From contig JBGCDS010000009.1 of assembly GCA_045105615.1 (NCBI GenBank), positions 19,783-83,782 of the forward strand: 64,000 bases of DNA, given 5' to 3'. Below are positions 17,972-26,847 of the stretch, one piece after another. Made by a program: the position numbers and the translations under genes. The notes beneath the pieces were generated by a model that saw nothing but the letters and a program-made list of their open reading frames with translations, ran no database searches and had not been told where the DNA came from. The number at the start of each line of letters is the position of its first letter. The first letter of the stretch is position 1. The DNA comes from Gammaproteobacteria bacterium (lineage in GTDB: Bacteria > Pseudomonadota > Gammaproteobacteria > UBA4575).

Positions 17972-18490
17972 TTAATCAAGTTTGATTCTTAATGCGAAAC
18001 CAAATGCATCGTCTTCTACTTCACCGATTTCTGGAAGGTAATGTATTTTTAAAGTGTATCTATCTTTAGTGAAAAATAGATATGGAATTAATGCGGGTCT
18101 AGGTTCTTGACCGTCATCATACCCGGTGATTAATCCACCAATTGCGCCTAAACCTACCCATTCTACATCGCCAAAAGTAAATTCTTTGCCTGCACCAGCA
18201 TAGAAGCTATCTCTATATAAACTGTTCCAAAAGTAACCACCTGCAATGAAGAAAGAATCATAATGATATTCTAAACCGATACCGCGATTAAATTGATTGT
18301 ATTCACTCGCATTTCCAGGGTGGTATGACGCAAGATTAATCTGAACAGCGAAATTATCTAGTCTGCCGTCAAATAAGCCTTCTTGTTTGGTTTTGTATTG
18401 ATCTTTTTCTTTGGCTACGTAGATATCATCATCAGCGAATAACGATGTGGTTGTGAGTAACAATAGAGAGACTAATGCATGACGTAGCAT
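17972..18490 (-). CDS. Exported small beta-barrel protein, PagP-like pattern
   Basis: Signal peptide; N.GIGLEY, GYFWNS...SFYAG and GLITGY amphipathic strands. Confidence 0.6.
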   Translation of the reverse strand: MLRHALVSLLLLTTTSLFADDDIYVAKEKDQYKTKQEGLFDGRLDNFAVQINLASYHPGNASEYNQFNRGIGLEYHYDSFFIAGGYFWNSLYRDSFYAGAGKEFTFGDVEWVGLGAIGGLITGYDDGQEPRPALIPYLFFTKDRYTLKIHYLPEIGEVEDDAFGFALRIKLD

Positions 18491-18759
18491 GATTGGGTAA
18501 TCCTTTTTTGGTTATATGGCTGACTTTAGTGAAGATGTATAAATTGTGTATGTATTTGTACATAAATCTTAATGAAATTAAATTTAACTCCGATGACTGG
18601 TGTGGGAATTAAGACAAATTCATTGGCCAGAATATTGGCATTATTTTAAACAATTTAGTGAGTTAGTAGTATTGCTATGAGCGGTGACTTTGAGACTTAA
18701 AGAAGCATTTTGTTTGTTTTTTGTCCAACTCTAATGGTAAGAAGCTCAACTGTTAGGCC

Positions 18760-19020
18760 TTAGAGAACATGTGAATTGAGTTTAATCAGCTTTTCTTTTA
18801 ACGCGATGCGTAATCTTTCTTGATAAGTATCTTTAAAAGAAGGAATTTGAGTAATAGTATTTACTGCCCAATCAACGCCACCTATCGAAACTAAATCTGA
18901 AACGATTTTTGTTGTTTCACGTTCAATTCTTGCTTGTTCAAAGTTTGTATATACTGTGCCCATATATAGAATCCAAGTGTTAGTGCGGTTACTTATAGTT
19001 ATCGGTAGAACTGAATACAC
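18760..19020 (-). CDS. Hypothetical protein (start uncertain, possibly ATG 18963)
   Basis: ORF fills an intergenic gap; no motif recognised. Confidence 0.35.
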   Translation of the reverse strand: MYSVLPITISNRTNTWILYMGTVYTNFEQARIERETTKIVSDLVSIGGVDWAVNTITQIPSFKDTYQERLRIALKEKLIKLNSHVL

Positions 19021-19109
19021 TATTAGGCTGATCTATTCGTTTAGTCGTTATTTTTTACCATTGATCGTGTTAGCTAGTGGATATTTAAAGAGATTAAGGA
19101 AATTTTCTA

Positions 19110-20681
19110 ATGTCAGACATAGTCGTTAAATATCGGGTCATTTCAGATAAAGATGGGGTATCTGATCTCGCAAGAAAAATTGCAATTGAACAGAGCGTTG
19201 AAACGCCAGAATCAATAATTACACCTGAAATAGAAGAAAGATTCGTTGGTAGAGTGATTGAAATTAATCGAGTTGAGAATCAAACTGATCAATATACGGT
19301 TGCATTAAGTTATCCTGAAGAAATATTAAGTCAACAATACAATCAACTTGTCAATTTGTGCTTTGGTAATGTCTCGATGTACAAGAATGTTAAGTGCATT
19401 GATATTGATTTGCCTAATAAGCTACTTTCATATTTTTCTGGTCCTAGATTTGGCATTGATGGGATACGGGAGTGCTTGGGTGTTCATGGAAGACCGTTAC
19501 TAGCAACAGCATTAAAACCACGTGGTTATAGCAATGAGAAATTTGCAAATCTTGCCTATGAATTTGCTTTAGGCGGTGGTGATATTATTAAAGATGATCA
19601 AAACTTAATTGGCGACTTTGAAGAATTTAAACGCAGAGTCACTCTATGCTTGAATGCAGTTAAAAAAGCAGAAAATAAAACAGGTAAGCGCTGTGTTTAT
19701 TTTCCATTTATATCTGCTCCTTATGAGCATATTGAAATGTATTTTGAATGGGTGAAGCGGCAAGGTGTGCAGGGTGTATTGTTAGCGCCATTGATTATTG
19801 GGCTTGATACAGCTAGAGGGCTTGCTGCTAAATATGATTTGATTTATATGGCACATCCTTCATTTACCGGCAGTTATTGTGTCGCGCCTAATGATGGTAT
19901 GAGCTATCACTTGTTGTATGGACTTTTGTTCAGATTAGCGGGTGTTGATATTTCAGTATTCCCAAATACGGGTGGTAGATTTCAGTTTGGAGAACAAGAC
20001 TGTAAAAAAATAGCAGATGAGCTACGTCGACCATTAGCAAATATAAAGTCAGCTTTTCCCTGTCCAGCTGGGGGCATGCAATATGCACATTTAAACGAAA
20101 TGTGTCGCTGGTATCAGCAGGATTCAGTATTTCTTCTTGGAGGTTCCTTGCTCGAGCACTCTGAAAAGCTGTCAGAATCGACATTAGCATTCAAATCTAA
20201 AATACAGGAAGAATTTTCTGAAACACTGACAAAACCAAAAGAAATGAATGAAATTTCATCCTGTGAATATCCGTCATCAAAAATAGATCCAATATTGGAA
20301 TTTATGGAATTTGATGATTTTAATTGGATGGGCAGAGAGAGTATTAAATATAAAGATGGTGACAATGCTTCATTTGATGCAGTGCGCCGTGTTGAGTTGA
20401 TTGGAAAAAATGGTGAAGCATCAGCATTTGATCTGCGTTATTTCGAAGTAGCCCAGGGTGGTTTTTCCAGTAAAGAGATGCATCAACATACACATGTAAT
20501 TATCGTGGCGCGTGGGGAAGGTGAGATTATTGTTGACGATAAGAAGTATGTAGCAAAGAAAAATGATGTTCTATATATAAAACCAATGACAATTCATCAA
20601 TTGATGAACCCGAACAGTGAACAATTTGGGTTTTACTGCATTGTAGATAGAGATCGAGATAAACCAATAACGGTCGATTAG
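19110..20681 (+). CDS. RuBisCO-like protein (form IV) fused to a C-terminal cupin
   Basis: RLP part: EQSVE, FSGPRFGIDGIR, ATALKPRG, GGGDIIKDDQ, MAHPSFTG, PAGGM, LGGSL. Cupin part: FDLRYFEVAQGGFSSKEMHQHTH...IHQL...FGFYCIVDRDRDKP. Confidence 0.9.
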   Translation: MSDIVVKYRVISDKDGVSDLARKIAIEQSVETPESIITPEIEERFVGRVIEINRVENQTDQYTVALSYPEEILSQQYNQLVNLCFGNVSMYKNVKCIDIDLPNKLLSYFSGPRFGIDGIRECLGVHGRPLLATALKPRGYSNEKFANLAYEFALGGGDIIKDDQNLIGDFEEFKRRVTLCLNAVKKAENKTGKRCVYFPFISAPYEHIEMYFEWVKRQGVQGVLLAPLIIGLDTARGLAAKYDLIYMAHPSFTGSYCVAPNDGMSYHLLYGLLFRLAGVDISVFPNTGGRFQFGEQDCKKIADELRRPLANIKSAFPCPAGGMQYAHLNEMCRWYQQDSVFLLGGSLLEHSEKLSESTLAFKSKIQEEFSETLTKPKEMNEISSCEYPSSKIDPILEFMEFDDFNWMGRESIKYKDGDNASFDAVRRVELIGKNGEASAFDLRYFEVAQGGFSSKEMHQHTHVIIVARGEGEIIVDDKKYVAKKNDVLYIKPMTIHQLMNPNSEQFGFYCIVDRDRDKPITVD

Positions 20682-21073
20682 CTTGCAGTGCTTATAACGA
20701 GTATGTATTGACCACTACGTGATGCATTAATGCCATTGATGATGGTGTCACCAAGAAAGCTATACCCTAAAACAGAATGTGTGCTGACTATTTCGTTGTT
20801 ATCAATGATGTGAGCTGTGTGTGAGCTATTTATGTATTCATAAGATAATTGTGCGTCAATTTCTAATTCAGTGCCATTGCAGTGAATATCACAGGGTAGA
20901 GCTGGAGAGGTATTGCCTGCGCGGTCTAGTAGTACAACGCTATATGACATGTCGAAATTACTTTGATTAATATGAAAGTTTGTAAAATATAATTGAAATA
21001 ATAACTGCGCACTTTGACCGCTGTCAAAAAAATATCTAAAAAGTTTAGTTTTGATACTATTATTTTTCAACAC
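20678..21073 (-). CDS. Hypothetical protein
   Basis: 131-aa ORF convergent with the RLP; true start may be internal; no motif. Confidence 0.35.
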   Translation of the reverse strand: MLKNNSIKTKLFRYFFDSGQSAQLLFQLYFTNFHINQSNFDMSYSVVLLDRAGNTSPALPCDIHCNGTELEIDAQLSYEYINSSHTAHIIDNNEIVSTHSVLGYSFLGDTIINGINASRSGQYILVISTAS

Positions 21074-21909: not shown

Positions 21910-23088
21910 ATGCGCTCACGCAATAAACTTGCATATAGTTTAGTTATTACGTTGATGTCAGTTATGTTTACGATCTCTGCAGCACATGCAGGACCACGTG
22001 AACAGGCGAAAAGGATGCATGACCGATTGGTGGGGGTTCCACCATCATCTGCAGTTCTCGATTCGATGACAACAAAGATTCAAAATGGAGATACTGTTGG
22101 AGCCGCTTATGAAGCGATGGAAAATCCAGCTTTTTATAATACGACTTTAAAAGACTTTTCTACTCCGTGGACGAATCGTGAAGGCTCAGTATATTCAGAC
22201 TTGAATGATTTCTCTGCCACAGTCATAGGTATGATTCGTGATGAGGTTCCATTCACAGAAGTGTTATCGGGAAATATTGTTTATGTGGGTTCAGCGGATG
22301 CTTCTAATAATGTCGCTTATTCGCAAACTGATAATGAACATTACGAGGAATTACAACAGCGTAATGTGAACCTGGGTGATCCGAATAATCTAGTTCAAAC
22401 ACAACAGACATCTCTACCAGGAAATATATTACCAGCATCTGCAACGGCAGGAGTAATGACTACACGTGGATTTGCTGAGTCATTTTTGGTCGCTGGGACT
22501 AATCGTGCCGCAGTTAGAAACGCTATGTTTAATTTCTTATGCGAAGACCAAGAAGACTTACGTGACATTACTGCACGTCCAGATTTTATTCGTCAAGATG
22601 TGACGCGTTCACCGGGGGGAGACAGTAAGATTTTCTTAACCGATTGTTTAACTTGCCACGCGGGCCTTGATGGTCTTGCAGGCGCATTTGCTTATTATGA
22701 CTTTGATGAAGAGAACTTGCAGATTGCTTATACAGCGGGTGCAGTTCAGCCTAAATACCTGCGTGATGCTGGAGTATTTCGCTTTGGCCATGAAACACAA
22801 AATGATGGTTGGGTTAACTATTGGCGTAATGGTCCAAATGCTTACATAGGTTGGAATGGTCCGGCAGGTTCGGGTCTTGGAGCTAAATCATTAGGTGTTG
22901 AGCTTGCATCAACGCGTCAATTTGCTGTGTGTCAATCTAAGAAAGCATTCGAGAAAGTTTGTTATCGACCACCTAATGGTGAAGCTGATCATACATTGGT
23001 CGACAATGTTGCAACTGTATTCCAAAACAATAATTACAGCATGAAGCGAGTATTCGCTGAAACTGCTGCTTATTGTATGGGTAACTAA
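21910..23088 (+). CDS. Sec-exported protein with one CxxCH heme-c motif, DUF1588/DUF1585-like C-terminal half
   Basis: Signal peptide ending AHA; AGVMTTRGF; CLTCHAGLDGL (22645-22659); C-terminal FAVC...F.NNNYSMKRVF pattern. Confidence 0.75.
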   Translation: MRSRNKLAYSLVITLMSVMFTISAAHAGPREQAKRMHDRLVGVPPSSAVLDSMTTKIQNGDTVGAAYEAMENPAFYNTTLKDFSTPWTNREGSVYSDLNDFSATVIGMIRDEVPFTEVLSGNIVYVGSADASNNVAYSQTDNEHYEELQQRNVNLGDPNNLVQTQQTSLPGNILPASATAGVMTTRGFAESFLVAGTNRAAVRNAMFNFLCEDQEDLRDITARPDFIRQDVTRSPGGDSKIFLTDCLTCHAGLDGLAGAFAYYDFDEENLQIAYTAGAVQPKYLRDAGVFRFGHETQNDGWVNYWRNGPNAYIGWNGPAGSGLGAKSLGVELASTRQFAVCQSKKAFEKVCYRPPNGEADHTLVDNVATVFQNNNYSMKRVFAETAAYCMGN

Positions 23089-23091
23089 GCG

Positions 23092-25311
23092 ATGCTACCG
23101 AGGAGAATAGTAATGACTCAGGAAAATTTAATTGTATCGCGGAATATGGACATCCGACGAATTCGTAAATCGCTACAATGGATTGGCATCATTTTGGTAA
23201 TGATTGCTTTGACAGCTTGTGGCGGTGGTAGTGGAGGAGGCACTTCAGAAGAAGATGCTTCGCCAAATACATCAGGAAATGGCGGTGGTACTGTGGTTAA
23301 TACACCGCCACCAGCAGTGCCGCCAGTAGCGCCACCAGCGCCACCTGCGCCGGCACCAACTATGCCGCCTGTTAATGACCAACAGTTATTTGCAGCGAAT
23401 GTTTATCCGCTAATGACATCAAATAGCTGTGTACAGTGTCATAGTGACCCTACACCATTGGGACTTCCATCAATTTTGCCATACATGGCTGATGAGACGG
23501 TTGAAACTGCTTATAACGAGGTAGTGAATAACCAAAAAGTTAGTTTCTCTAATCCTGCTAATTCACGCCTAGTTGATAAGCCTAGAGCAACTAATCACAA
23601 CTGCGGTGGAGCAGTTGCATGTGAAGAATTTGCTACAGCAATGCAAGCAGCTATTCAAACATGGGCTGATGCACGAAGTGCTGCAAATCCTCCAGTTAAC
23701 AATCTTCCACGTGTAGCGAGTGCTATGGCTAGCTTTGCTGATGGTCAAGATGGTGGAGCTGCAAGGGTTGATGCAAACGTTATTGCAAAATATGACTTTT
23801 CTGAAGGCGCTGGGGATATCGTTAGAGATTCTAGCGGAGTTGGTACCCCCATGGATCTACTCATTGAAGGTGATATGCAATGGGTTGAAGGCGGTGGACT
23901 GCGTAATATTGATGGAAAAGCTAAAGCTGCTATGGCGGATAGCGCAAAGATGTTCAATATGATCTCACAAGATCAAGATGAATTTACTATTGAGGCATGG
24001 GTCATTCCTGACGCGGAAGATCAAGACGTTGGTGGGATTTCTGTGATAGCAGGTTATCAACGTAACGATGCGTCAATTGGTAATAATAACTTTATCTTTG
24101 GTCAGGTAAATACTAATTTCGAACTTCGTACTAGAAGTGAAACAACCGGTAATAATGGGTTGCCTGCATTAACTGCGAATGGAAATACTGTTCGTACTGA
24201 CTTAATGCATGTTGTATTTACTATTGATGCAACTTCAGGGCGTAAAGTCTATGTTGATGGTCAATTTGTTGGTGACATGGATGGCGCACCATTAGGTCAA
24301 CTAGACTGGGATGCAGCATTTGGATTTGTACTTGGTAATGAATACGAAGATCAAAGTGGGAATTTATGGTTAGGCACATTTAAGATGGTAGCTATCCATA
24401 ATCGCGCATTGACAGATGTACAGGTTCAACAAAACTTTGATGCTGGCTTAGGTAACTTTGTTACACTTGCATTTGACGTTAGTAACATCATTGGTGCACC
24501 TGCATCAGTACAACTGCAAGCTACTGATATGGATGACAATGCATATTTATTTGCATCTCCAAGACTCATTACTGATGTGTCAGGAGTGCAAGTTCAAAAC
24601 ATTAGAGTGGCTGTTAATAACAATATTCCAGTCGCTACTCAAGCATTCCGTTCAGTGAACATGATGGTGACTGAAAGTGGCCAAGAGTTGTCACCATTAG
24701 GTGCAGTGATTCCTAAAGACTTAGGTCTTGATTTGGATATGTTCCATCTGGAGTTTGAGATGTTAGGTTCCCAAGTAGGATCAGGCGACTCTTATATTCC
24801 TCCATTGGAACCAGGTATCGCTGACTTTGGTGTTTTGCCTGAGTTTGGGGTGCGTTCATTCTCAAGTGTGAATGACACTATGTCAGTATTGACTACTATT
24901 CCAGTAACTCAAAATACTGTACGAAATCGTTACGAAGAATTAAGGGATTCATTACCTGCAACAGCAGATATTCTAGCCTTTAATTCAGCATCACAGATTG
25001 CAATTCAGCGATTAGCAGTGACTTACTGTGATCGCGTTAGAAGGTCTAATAATGCATGTAATGTGGTATTTGGTAATAGTTGTAACAATATTGCTAATGC
25101 TGCTGATAAACAAAATCGAGTCAATGCACTATTCGATAGATTTGTCGGTGACTTGGAGAATCAACCTGACCGTGCAGAAGCTACTGCCGCAGTAAATAGT
25201 CTTATGGACGATTTAGGCTGCGCTAATGGCTGCACAAATGCTACTAAAGATATTGCTCTGCAAGCGAGTTGTGCAGCAGTACTTTCTAGTGGCGCCATGA
25301 CAATTAACTGA
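23092..25311 (+). CDS. Lipoprotein with Pro-rich linker, CxxCH cytochrome-c domain and LamG/concanavalin-like domain
   Basis: Lipobox LTAC-GGG; PPPAVPPVAPPAPPAP linker; CVQCH (23428-23442); LamG patterns YDFSEGAG, FTIEAWV, HVVFT, VYVDG and IHNRALT; Cys-rich C-terminus. Start could be 23113 or later. Confidence 0.85.
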   Translation: MLPRRIVMTQENLIVSRNMDIRRIRKSLQWIGIILVMIALTACGGGSGGGTSEEDASPNTSGNGGGTVVNTPPPAVPPVAPPAPPAPAPTMPPVNDQQLFAANVYPLMTSNSCVQCHSDPTPLGLPSILPYMADETVETAYNEVVNNQKVSFSNPANSRLVDKPRATNHNCGGAVACEEFATAMQAAIQTWADARSAANPPVNNLPRVASAMASFADGQDGGAARVDANVIAKYDFSEGAGDIVRDSSGVGTPMDLLIEGDMQWVEGGGLRNIDGKAKAAMADSAKMFNMISQDQDEFTIEAWVIPDAEDQDVGGISVIAGYQRNDASIGNNNFIFGQVNTNFELRTRSETTGNNGLPALTANGNTVRTDLMHVVFTIDATSGRKVYVDGQFVGDMDGAPLGQLDWDAAFGFVLGNEYEDQSGNLWLGTFKMVAIHNRALTDVQVQQNFDAGLGNFVTLAFDVSNIIGAPASVQLQATDMDDNAYLFASPRLITDVSGVQVQNIRVAVNNNIPVATQAFRSVNMMVTESGQELSPLGAVIPKDLGLDLDMFHLEFEMLGSQVGSGDSYIPPLEPGIADFGVLPEFGVRSFSSVNDTMSVLTTIPVTQNTVRNRYEELRDSLPATADILAFNSASQIAIQRLAVTYCDRVRRSNNACNVVFGNSCNNIANAADKQNRVNALFDRFVGDLENQPDRAEATAAVNSLMDDLGCANGCTNATKDIALQASCAAVLSSGAMTIN

Positions 25312-25332
25312 TCTATAAGCGAGGATATAACG

Positions 25333-26847
25333 ATGGGTAAATATGTAGAGCAATGTCGACGTAGAGAAGAGCAAAATCGTCGTTTGCAACAACGTATCGA
25401 AGATGATTGTCGCCAATCAGGTCATGGTCGTCCGGTGACACGTAGAGACTTCTTAGGTAGAGGCTTTATCTCAGGAATGGGCATGGTGTTTGCGCCAACG
25501 CTTTCAACATTCTTGGCGCGTGAAGCACATGCTGAGTGTGATCTAACAACACTGGTTCAAGGTGCTGGTAAGATTCCATTCATTAGTATTGACCAGGGTG
25601 GTGGTGCCAATATCGCGGGTTCAAATGTAATGGTAGGTTCTTTAGGGCAGGAAAACTTTTTAAGTCCTGAAGGATATGCCAGATTAGGCTTACCAGAAGC
25701 TATCATTCCAGATAATGTTGGGGTAGACCGAACATTTGGAATTGCCATGCATCCTAATAGTGCGATGCTTAGAGGGATGCTGGATAAAACAAGTGTAGCT
25801 GCAAGAGCAGGCACTAACGGTGTAGTCATTCCGGCACGTTCAGAAAACGATACTGGGAACAATCCACATAACCCTGTCTATGGTATTGCTCAGTCAGGTG
25901 CTAACGGCCAATTTGTAGCAGCTGTCGGAACGAGAAATTCTGATACTGGTGGTCGTTCTGATGCGCCTAGTTACATGATTGATCCTGCTGTCAGGCCGAC
26001 TAAAGTCAGTAACTCCAACGAAGCGATTGGTCTTGGTGGTGGAGATGATGATGGTTTTCCGACGGGTAGAGTGGCGGAAGCAGCTGCAATCATTAGTCAG
26101 TTGAAACTGGGTAAAATTACTGCTGAAGAAGCGACTAAAGAGCTTGTGCAATGTGGTTATGATAAAAGTTCTGCGACATTCAACACAGCTATTACAGCTG
26201 CTGAGTTGGATCCTAATCAGGATACTGACTTGCAAGCAATTTTCCCTAATGGCGAGTTAAATGATGGTGATTTCCGTAAAGCGGCTGCGGTCATGAAAAC
26301 AGTAATCAAAGGCTTTGCGGGTGCTGGAACCATTGAGTATGGCGGTCGTGACTATCATCAGAACCCTCGTCCTGAAACGGATGAAAAAGACTTTATTGTT
26401 GGTCAAGTTATTGGTGCAACTTTAGAGTACGCGCAACGCGCTAATCAACCCGTTATGATCTATGTCTTTAGTGATGGTTCAGTCTCTGCTGATACAAATA
26501 ATCCTGAAGATGATGGCAATGGAACGACTAAATTCCGTTGGCGTTCAGATAATTCACAAACGGCTGCTAGCGCAATCTTTGTTTATCAACCTGGTGGTGT
26601 AAGACCAGTGCTGCGAGGTAATGCTGCAGGTACTAATCAGTTAGGTAGATTTAGAATGGATGGTAATGTTGATACTGCTTCAAGCCCATTCGCTAATAGT
26701 GTTACATCGTTAGCAGAGGTGGTAGTGCTAAATTATTTAGGGCTGCATGGTCAGCAGGCTAGATTTGGTGCGGATGTGTTAGCTAATAATGGTTTGGGAA
26801 CAGGCGCAGTGGTTGATCCATATGTGGCATTCAATCCTATTGTCTAA
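25333..26847 (+). CDS. Tat-exported DUF1501-like protein
   Basis: Twin-arginine TRRDFLG followed by an AHA cleavage site; GGRDYH and IYVFSDG resemble the DUF1501 GGWDTH and xxxSEFG motifs; GAGGA RBS. Confidence 0.75.
   Translation: MGKYVEQCRRREEQNRRLQQRIEDDCRQSGHGRPVTRRDFLGRGFISGMGMVFAPTLSTFLAREAHAECDLTTLVQGAGKIPFISIDQGGGANIAGSNVMVGSLGQENFLSPEGYARLGLPEAIIPDNVGVDRTFGIAMHPNSAMLRGMLDKTSVAARAGTNGVVIPARSENDTGNNPHNPVYGIAQSGANGQFVAAVGTRNSDTGGRSDAPSYMIDPAVRPTKVSNSNEAIGLGGGDDDGFPTGRVAEAAAIISQLKLGKITAEEATKELVQCGYDKSSATFNTAITAAELDPNQDTDLQAIFPNGELNDGDFRKAAAVMKTVIKGFAGAGTIEYGGRDYHQNPRPETDEKDFIVGQVIGATLEYAQRANQPVMIYVFSDGSVSADTNNPEDDGNGTTKFRWRSDNSQTAASAIFVYQPGGVRPVLRGNAAGTNQLGRFRMDGNVDTASSPFANSVTSLAEVVVLNYLGLHGQQARFGADVLANNGLGTGAVVDPYVAFNPIV

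Follow-up and report, generated by a model that had tools for sequence, protein, structure and literature searches.

The closest described systems come from the alphaproteobacteria Rhodospirillum rubrum and Rhodopseudomonas palustris. In R. rubrum, the RuBisCO-like protein (RLP) Rru_A1998 has been described as an isomerase and the cupin Rru_A2000 as the methylsulfurylase of 1-methylthioxylulose-5-phosphate (MTXu-5-P; accounts in PMC4334135 and PMC4958253). According to PMC5893883, RLP1 of R. palustris (RPA2169) belongs to the DeepYkr clade, is 53% identical to the R. rubrum enzyme and acts in vivo as a 1,3-isomerase of 5-methylthioribulose-1-phosphate (MTRu-1-P). The same account describes the adjoining cupin RPA2170 as an MTXu-5-P methylsulfurylase. 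In the accessible portions of the literature searched, the shunt from 5'-methylthioadenosine (MTA) to isoprenoids has been demonstrated only in these two bacteria, from separate neighbouring genes. Here, we describe a gene in which an RLP and a cupin form one polypeptide of 523 residues. The gene lies in a stretch of 64,000 nucleotides (hereafter the window; positions 19,783 to 83,782 of contig JBGCDS010000009.1, assembly GCA_045105615.1) from a gammaproteobacterium of the lineage UBA4575. We propose, at a probability of roughly 80%, that this fusion is a bifunctional core of the MTA-isoprenoid shunt.

Fused enzymes of methionine salvage have been described before. The MtnBD and MtnAK proteins of Tetrahymena (PMC3698126, PMC6302742) likewise hold consecutive salvage enzymes in one polypeptide, but they join other enzymes of another pathway branch and belong to a eukaryote. 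Wherever the accessible text of the literature searched speaks of a fusion, it refers to MtnBD, MtnAK or IspDF. Within that text, which includes portions of PMC5893883, PMC4958253, PMC6302742, PMC10663253 and PMC4334135, no mention was found of an RLP-cupin fusion, of its breadth or of the subclade discussed below; a remark in Erb 2012, Warlick 2012, Imker 2008 or Tabita 2007 is possible.

The window's gene resembles the known proteins closely. Its RLP part shares with Rru_A1998 and RPA2169 a length of about 370 residues, the conserved K, D, H and R positions and the presence of mtnP and mtnA in the genome. Whereas the known proteins are encoded beside the next enzyme, the RLP described here is fused to it and does not cluster with pathway genes; where they carry the motif KDDH, it carries KDDQ with co-varying Arg138 and Asn165. 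Its cupin part aligns with Rru_A2000 (3JZV) along the entire domain (72.2 bits), and the two have in common the ExHxHxH motif, the His of motif 2 and a Cys in GF.C. Stand-alone proteins of the Rru_A2000 type measure about 160 residues, whereas this cupin is a C-terminal domain after a linker of about 35 residues. The enolase MtnW of Bacillus subtilis and Geobacillus kaustophilus, which acts on 2,3-diketo-5-methylthiopentyl-1-phosphate, is a member of the same superfamily with the same fold (Foldseek template modelling score, TM, 0.81-0.86) and also serves methionine salvage, but the step that feeds it, MtnB, was not found in this genome. The features of the gene, in window coordinates, are as follows.

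19096..19102, plus strand: Shine-Dalgarno-like AAGGAAA, 7 nt before the ATG, read directly from the sequence
19110..20681, plus strand: whole gene, RLP-linker-cupin fusion of 523 residues, ATG start, stop codon included, no internal stop
19110..20207, plus strand: RuBisCO-like domain (form IV, DeepYkr-type), residues 1-366, predicted MTRu-1-P 1,3-isomerase from searches of the PDB and with Foldseek
19515..19517, plus strand: Lys136 in the motif GRPLLATALKPRG, invariant in 138 fused sequences
19590..19601, plus strand: K161-D162-D163-Q164 (residues 161-164), carbamate-lysine and metal-ligand motif, from the sequence read, the PDB alignment and a clade census
20208..20309, plus strand: poorly conserved inter-domain linker, residues 367-400
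20310..20678, plus strand: cupin domain, residues 401-523, predicted MTXu-5-P methylsulfurylase from PDB scores and Pfam Cupin_2
20475..20495, plus strand: E456-x-H458-x-H460-x-H462, His-rich cupin motif 1, aligned to ERHQHAH of Rru_A2000
20637..20639, plus strand: Cys510 in GFYCIVD, candidate catalytic thiol; its counterpart in the Rru_A2000 alignment is the Cys of GFLCMVN

Identity of the two domains

An earlier note, made from the sequence alone, had described a single 523-residue open reading frame (ORF) with an RLP part, a linker and a cupin. This architecture was borne out by the ORF reading, Pfam and AlphaFold2. The opposite strand of 19110-20681 contains many stops and its reading is closed. 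Pfam places RuBisCO_large at residues 115-351 (E 1.1e-23, 84.4 bits against a cut-off of 30.1) and Cupin_2 at residues 444-511 (E 7.2e-11, 42.1 bits against 27.2). The two strings quoted in that note both occur in the translation: GGGDIIKDDQNL contains KDDQ at residues 161-164, and DLRYFEVAQGGFSSKEMHQHTHVII occupies residues 441-465, with LRYFEV...E.HQHTH at 442-462. In the AlphaFold2 model (138 fused homologues as input; mean predicted local distance difference test, pLDDT, 92.3; predicted TM score 0.78), two confident domains are seen, an RLP body at residues 1-366 with pLDDT mostly above 90 and a beta-barrel at about residues 401-520; within the linker, residues 380-391 fall below a pLDDT of 50.

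The N-terminal domain was predicted to be an RLP of the R. rubrum type, and by both sequence and fold its nearest relative is the R. palustris structure 3QFW. In a search of all solved structures, 3qfw_A was the best match (233.6 bits, E 4.3e-68, residues 4-367), followed by form III RuBisCOs (135.6 and 132.5 bits), MtnW of G. kaustophilus (118 bits), the Chlorobium tepidum RLP (107 bits) and R. palustris rlp2 (87.9 bits). Foldseek also ranked 3qfw first for the model (3qfw_B, TM on the target 0.92, root-mean-square deviation 2.0). Its Foldseek title reads 'Rubisco-like protein from Rhodopseudomonas palustris', and 2qyg from the same organism is titled rlp2. From this title and the two RLPs that PMC5893883 lists for R. 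palustris, we infer that 3QFW is RLP1.

Two other members of the superfamily were considered and rejected. For the MtnW/YkrW enolase, the NCBIfam scores were 197 against a cut-off of 409 and 138.5 against 513.6 bits, and MtnB was missing from the genome matches. For carboxylating RuBisCO of forms I-III, the scores were 164.3 bits against a cut-off of 438, 160.5 against 497 (form III) and 56.9 against 489. On the RLP domain, every NCBIfam model stays below its cut-off, which rules out both a carboxylase and an MtnW enolase. The residues point the same way: in place of the KDDE, the H-R pair and the loop-6 Lys of carboxylating RuBisCO, the domain carries KDDQ, Pro250 after His249, and Arg290, which we take to occupy the loop-6 position by RuBisCO numbering. 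Across 133 clade members of all groups, E27, N87, K136, K161, D163, H249, R290, G321/G322 and G344/G345 are kept. We presume that the RLP positions map onto RuBisCO K175, K201, D203, E204, H294 and K334, with Lys136 as the presumed equivalent of K175.

The C-terminal domain had been assigned to the R. rubrum methylsulfurylase type, and the structure search agrees. When the cupin alone was compared with the PDB, 3ibm (96.3 bits), 3jzv (Rru_A2000, 72.2 bits) and 3kgz (67.6 bits) stood far ahead of the next cupin, DddK (33.9 bits), with a gap of about 34 bits or more to all other cupins. Three features line up with Rru_A2000: the ExHxHxH motif, the His of the second motif (H496) and a Cys in GF.C (C510). 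Among 138 fused sequences, none departs from H460, H496 or C510, and E456, H458 and H462 are each retained in at least 90%. By this alignment, E456, H458, H460 and H462 together with H496 form a probable metal site. Warlick and colleagues are said to have given the Cys of the R. rubrum enzyme a catalytic role.

Could only one half of the protein be catalytic? The cupin might serve only to sense a ligand or to regulate, or the RLP might be a scaffold without activity. Domains of the Cupin_2 and AraC_binding types are often sensors, and Pfam gives a weaker AraC_binding match here besides Cupin_2. However, the His motif and the Cys of the cupin are invariant or nearly so in the 138 fusions, the residues at the catalytic positions of the RLP are conserved, and Pfam shows no DNA-binding domain in the protein. 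We regard a single active half as very unlikely.

Distribution and history of the fusion

The R. rubrum and R. palustris enzymes are encoded as separate neighbours, so a fused reading frame could have arisen falsely from two adjacent genes, through an assembly error or a frameshift. The earlier note had asked for a check of the reads across the junction. Contigs from three public runs span 18935-20900 or more with zero substitutions, indels or joints. This agreement is weak independent support, because the three runs come from one study and possibly were the source of this assembly. The comparative loci are the stronger evidence. When genomes were scanned, one for each species, 223 relatives were found, and the best 80 loci of the 223 were analysed. 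In 67 of these 80, the two domains share strand and frame, and all but one of the 67 (66 loci, at least nine phyla) keep the fused ORF open throughout. In addition, 119 of the 120 best protein clusters hold both domains, nearly all in proteins of 515-563 residues; the ORF shared by these loci and clusters is about 520 residues long. The fusion is real, and an artefact, which we consider practically negligible, is refuted as far as sequence data allow. At one locus of a Nitrospiraceae metagenome-assembled genome (MAG; L072:1959-3584), RLP and cupin share one frame with two stop codons between them. This could be a gene that split in two recently, a pseudogene or a mistake in sequencing.

The fused loci are widely spread. 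Gammaproteobacteria account for 49 of them, Nitrospirota for five, Planctomycetota for four (among them the cultured strain of locus L070) and other Pseudomonadota for one. Three are taxonomically unplaced, two of which carry titles that say KSB1, and Bacteroidota, Acidobacteriota, Firestonebacteria, FCPU426 and Hydrogenedentota contribute one each. The fusion is thus a large, already sequenced family that is common in uncultured bacteria. Its members carry the public labels 'ribulose-bisphosphate carboxylase large chain', 'RuBisCO large subunit C-terminal-like domain-containing protein' and 'cupin domain-containing protein'.

On a tree of 144 RLP domains, the fused or unfused label has to change at least 24 times, and well-supported branches force 11 of these changes. 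Most fusions fall in one half of the tree (33 of its 56 rows, vs 7 of 88 in the other). Some of the 'unfused' proteins from metagenomes may be truncated gene calls. Genuine stand-alone RLPs of 365-438 residues were found at 12 genome loci, and none of these has a cupin of the Rru_A2000 type within 8 kb; a thirteenth locus (L025) is cut by a contig end.

Several of these relatives show arrangements of their own. In two Lysobacterales MAGs, a stand-alone KDDQ RLP (L055:7953-9119 and L060:1500-2648) is convergent with a full-length dxs (L055:9150-11057 and L060:3200-5107, both on the minus strand; DXP_synthase_N E about 1e-113), again with no cupin within 8 kb. Both RLP genes follow a gene for a PrmC-like methyltransferase, which also lies upstream of the RLP at loci L065 and L069. 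The 730-residue protein P0220 joins an RLP domain of the same clade to Transketolase_N / DXP_synthase_N and holds no cupin. It may be an alternative fusion partner or a merge in gene calling on a metagenome contig. Other architectures around the same RLP, any of which could be an artefact of gene calling, were seen as well: P0123 (726 residues) combines an inositol-monophosphatase-family domain with an RLP, P0265 (781 residues) combines an RLP with two cupin stretches, and P0189, P0193 and P0208 (705-785 residues) are RLP-cupin proteins with long extra C-terminal regions.

The KDDQ motif and the question of substrate

The earlier note had drawn attention to KDDQ as an active-site variant. The motif is really present, and KDDH is typical of the relatives, including 3qfw in the PDB alignment; as a special mark of this protein or of the fusions it did not hold. 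A search for RLP homologues gave 1,721 matches at E <= 1e-3, from which the 150 best representatives at 50% identity were taken, and the residue census covers the query and 132 full-length RLP domains from these. Position 164 is His in 110 of the 133 (22 fused, 88 unfused), Gln in 20 (7 fused, 13 unfused) and Asp or Asn in three. Two further positions co-vary: position 138 is mostly Arg in the Q-type and mostly Met, Leu or Val in the H-type, and position 165 is mostly Asn in the Q-type and mostly Gly in the H-type.

In the FastTree phylogeny of the 144 domains, the query falls in a clade of seven rows that are all fused and all of the Q-type (support 100). This clade is nested in an all-Q clade of 24 rows, with both fused and unfused members (Shimodaira-Hasegawa-like support 99), and the H/Q character needs only four changes on the tree. 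Because a supported all-Q clade mixes fused and unfused proteins and KDDH is the majority in both, KDDQ reads in this alignment as a signature of the subclade, peculiar neither to the query gene nor to fusions. It is, by the same comparison, a within-clade variant that keeps K161 and D163 and gives no ground for excluding the query from the DeepYkr clade. The carbonyl of Gln164 could still act as a metal ligand.

The variant nevertheless bears on a rival explanation, in which the same fold and two-step logic serve another or a broader substrate in the Q164/R138/N165 subclade, for example 5-deoxyribulose-1-phosphate derived from 5'-deoxyadenosine, or another thiol. In that case, 1-deoxyxylulose-5-phosphate (DXP) plus methanethiol from MTA would not be what the protein makes in the cell, or not all of it. 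Positions 164, 138 and 165, at or beside the metal site, differ systematically between the types, with Gln at 164 in 20 of 20 Q-type and His in 110 of 110 H-type members. The 12 unfused close relatives without a cupin within 8 kb also fit this explanation, since they show that the RLPs of the clade are not always tied to a cupin. Four of these relatives, from Elusimicrobiota, follow a TauE/SafE permease. In all four Elusimicrobiota loci checked, the gene for this sulfite-exporter-like permease lies directly before the stand-alone RLP (L080:7158-7925, L085:7278-7988, L086:2618-3385 and L087:7209-7976; E 1e-41 to 1e-45), and the pairing suggests a sulfur-linked, cupin-free use of this RLP clade. 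On the other hand, all remaining residues at positions equivalent to the active site are unchanged, and RLPs of either type occur joined to the same cupin (of the 67 fused genome loci, 53 are Q-type and 14 H-type). Moreover, mtnP and mtnA supply MTRu-1-P in the query's genome, for which no other known consumer was found there. A change of substrate or thiol therefore appears unlikely to us.

A further and bolder proposal can be built on the same residues. The fused Q164/R138/N165 subclade would be a functionally shifted channelling enzyme that takes both MTRu-1-P and 5-deoxyribulose-1-phosphate, each delivered by MtnP and MtnA. The latter would be converted to DXP directly, without the cupin, and the enzyme would have replaced the aldolase branch, similar to the dihydroxyacetone phosphate (DHAP) shunt, across at least nine phyla. 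We hold this to be a long shot. If it were true, one stand-alone gene would feed all waste of S-adenosylmethionine (SAM) into isoprenoids, and the lineages that bear the fusion would be unrecognised sources of methanethiol.

Pathway context and proposed function

The favoured reading, a bifunctional core of the MTA-isoprenoid shunt, depends on a supply of MTRu-1-P. It had been observed that mtnP and mtnA lie outside the window, and a search of the genome (2.05 Mb in 46 contigs, 91% complete) found both, on contigs C7 and C17, while the window is on C9. MtnA scores 439 bits against a cut-off of 279, and MtnP falls just under its own. The genome also encodes O-acetylhomoserine sulfhydrylase (667 bits), glutathione synthetase GshB (434 bits), spermidine synthase (181.9 bits) and Dxs (875 bits). 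The searches of this genome gave no match for MtnB, MtnC, ARD/MtnD or a class II aldolase (Aldolase_II), and no second RuBisCO-family gene. With mtnP and mtnA present and these other enzymes not found, MTRu-1-P would be made and the fusion would be its only recognisable consumer.

The distribution within the order adds to this picture. In a sample of 56 species genomes from 11 genera, the full-length fusion occurs in 14: ten of 16 in the window's genus, the only genome of a second genus and all three of a third. All 14 carry an intact mtnA. Among the six fusion-less genomes of the window's genus, mtnA is intact in one (an assembly 83% complete), fragmented in two (one of them with stops) and missing from three. 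All 56 genomes carry mtnP, and in none of them does a match to MtnB or ARD exceed its cut-off. A weak match to the MtnB model (41-63 bits) was found in ORFs of 184-219 residues (about 190) in 36 of the 42 genomes that lack the fusion and in none of the 14 that bear it. Two of these short proteins were checked; they are Aldolase_II proteins whose best model is NF006413 'aldolase', below its cut-off. The matches to the MtnB model in two fusion-bearing genomes are longer proteins of other Aldolase_II subfamilies (NF005451, 342 bits; NF005484, 460 bits). The fusion and the short aldolase never occur together (14 vs 36 genomes, six with neither), as expected of alternative sinks for MTRu-1-P, although the substrate of the aldolase is putative. 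Isoprenoid-shunt and DHAP-shunt-like aldolase branches have been described for R. rubrum and R. palustris in the account of PMC5893883.

Nine fusion-less genomes of the sample (G001, G019, G043, G045-G047, G049, G050 and G052) hold an ORF of about 500 residues that is 27-28% identical to the RLP part of the query. These are probably genuine RuBisCO, and the family would then include autotrophic and non-autotrophic members.

In the proposed mechanism, SAM-dependent polyamine synthesis, for example by spermidine synthase, would yield MTA, which MtnP and MtnA, encoded elsewhere, would convert to MTRu-1-P. The N-terminal RLP domain would isomerise MTRu-1-P to MTXu-5-P at a metal site with K161 and D163, in which Q164 replaces His. 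Next, the C-terminal cupin, which holds the His-rich metal site and Cys510, would transfer the methylthio group to a thiol. This could be glutathione, as gshB is present and as PMC5893883 gives glutathione as the thiol in R. rubrum. The products would be DXP for the methylerythritol phosphate (MEP) pathway and a methylthio-thiol adduct or methanethiol. The methylthio unit would return to methionine via O-acetylhomoserine sulfhydrylase or be lost as methanethiol. Tethering would keep the two activities equimolar, and it may curb loss of MTXu-5-P or formation of methylthioribulose-5-phosphate (MTRu-5-P), a dead-end epimer, as a side product; for R. rubrum, PMC5893883 gives MTXu-5-P and MTRu-5-P as 3:1. 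Channelling between the domains is a conjecture, as the linker is long and, in the model, disordered.

Several points weigh against this proposal. Both activities of the fused protein, the thiol used and any channelling are what we infer from homology and gene content. MtnP scores 271.7 bits, 3 under its cut-off of 274.85, and the absences are unproven because the genome is 91% complete. Since Dxs is present, the route is unneeded for DXP supply. Gln in place of His or Glu at a metal-ligand position, co-varying with R138 and N165, means that substrate or metal preference could differ. The DeepYkr label follows from the nearest solved structure and the naming in the literature rather than from a form IV tree with named references. 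The complementary pattern of fusion and aldolase follows genera (3 vs 8) and may thus reflect few independent events. Genome context gives little help either. When 1,095 flanking ORFs were clustered, no recurrent neighbour was found, as the largest family reaches 11 of the 67 fused loci and represents synteny of close kin. A tblastn search with MtnA, MtnP and MetY of this genome placed mtnA beside the gene at one of the 80 loci and mtnP at none, and gave weak MetY-like matches at two of the 80.

In the window itself, the neighbours are a HIT protein, a YkuD transpeptidase, a class III aminotransferase and several unknowns, with no link to the pathway. Rfam (E <= 1) found no SAM or other riboswitch in 18300-19300, which covers the 620-nt upstream region and the start of the gene, and a scan for promoter and terminator consensus sequences gave five promoter-like sites where 13.1 were expected. 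Downstream, at 21910-26847 on the plus strand, three large consecutive ORFs encode 392, 739 and 504 residues. Only the 739-residue product has a Pfam match (Laminin_G_3 / concanavalin-like); the 392-residue product has a signal-peptide-like start and the 504-residue product a twin-arginine-like start (RRDFLGRG). Together, the three may form an uncharacterised secreted or periplasmic module.

Neither the component enzymes of the fusion nor the pathway is new; what this analysis adds is the census and tree of the H/Q character, the positions that co-vary with it, and the finding that, across the order, the fusion alternates with the aldolase and with loss of mtnA. A natural fusion provides independent support, of the Rosetta-stone type, that the two steps belong together, and it can serve as a single-gene marker of the pathway. 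Judged by this marker, bacteria with the route seem to include Gammaproteobacteria, Planctomycetota, Nitrospirota, Acidobacteriota, Bacteroidota and members of several candidate phyla. Because databases label the protein as a RuBisCO large chain, surveys of metagenomes could wrongly count it towards carbon fixation. A route from MTRu-1-P to DXP in one polypeptide may also be of interest to pathway engineers. For the small-genome gammaproteobacteria that carry it, the fusion would mean oxygen-independent methionine salvage with possible release of methanethiol; from one sister genus to another, it alternates with a branch through a class II aldolase.

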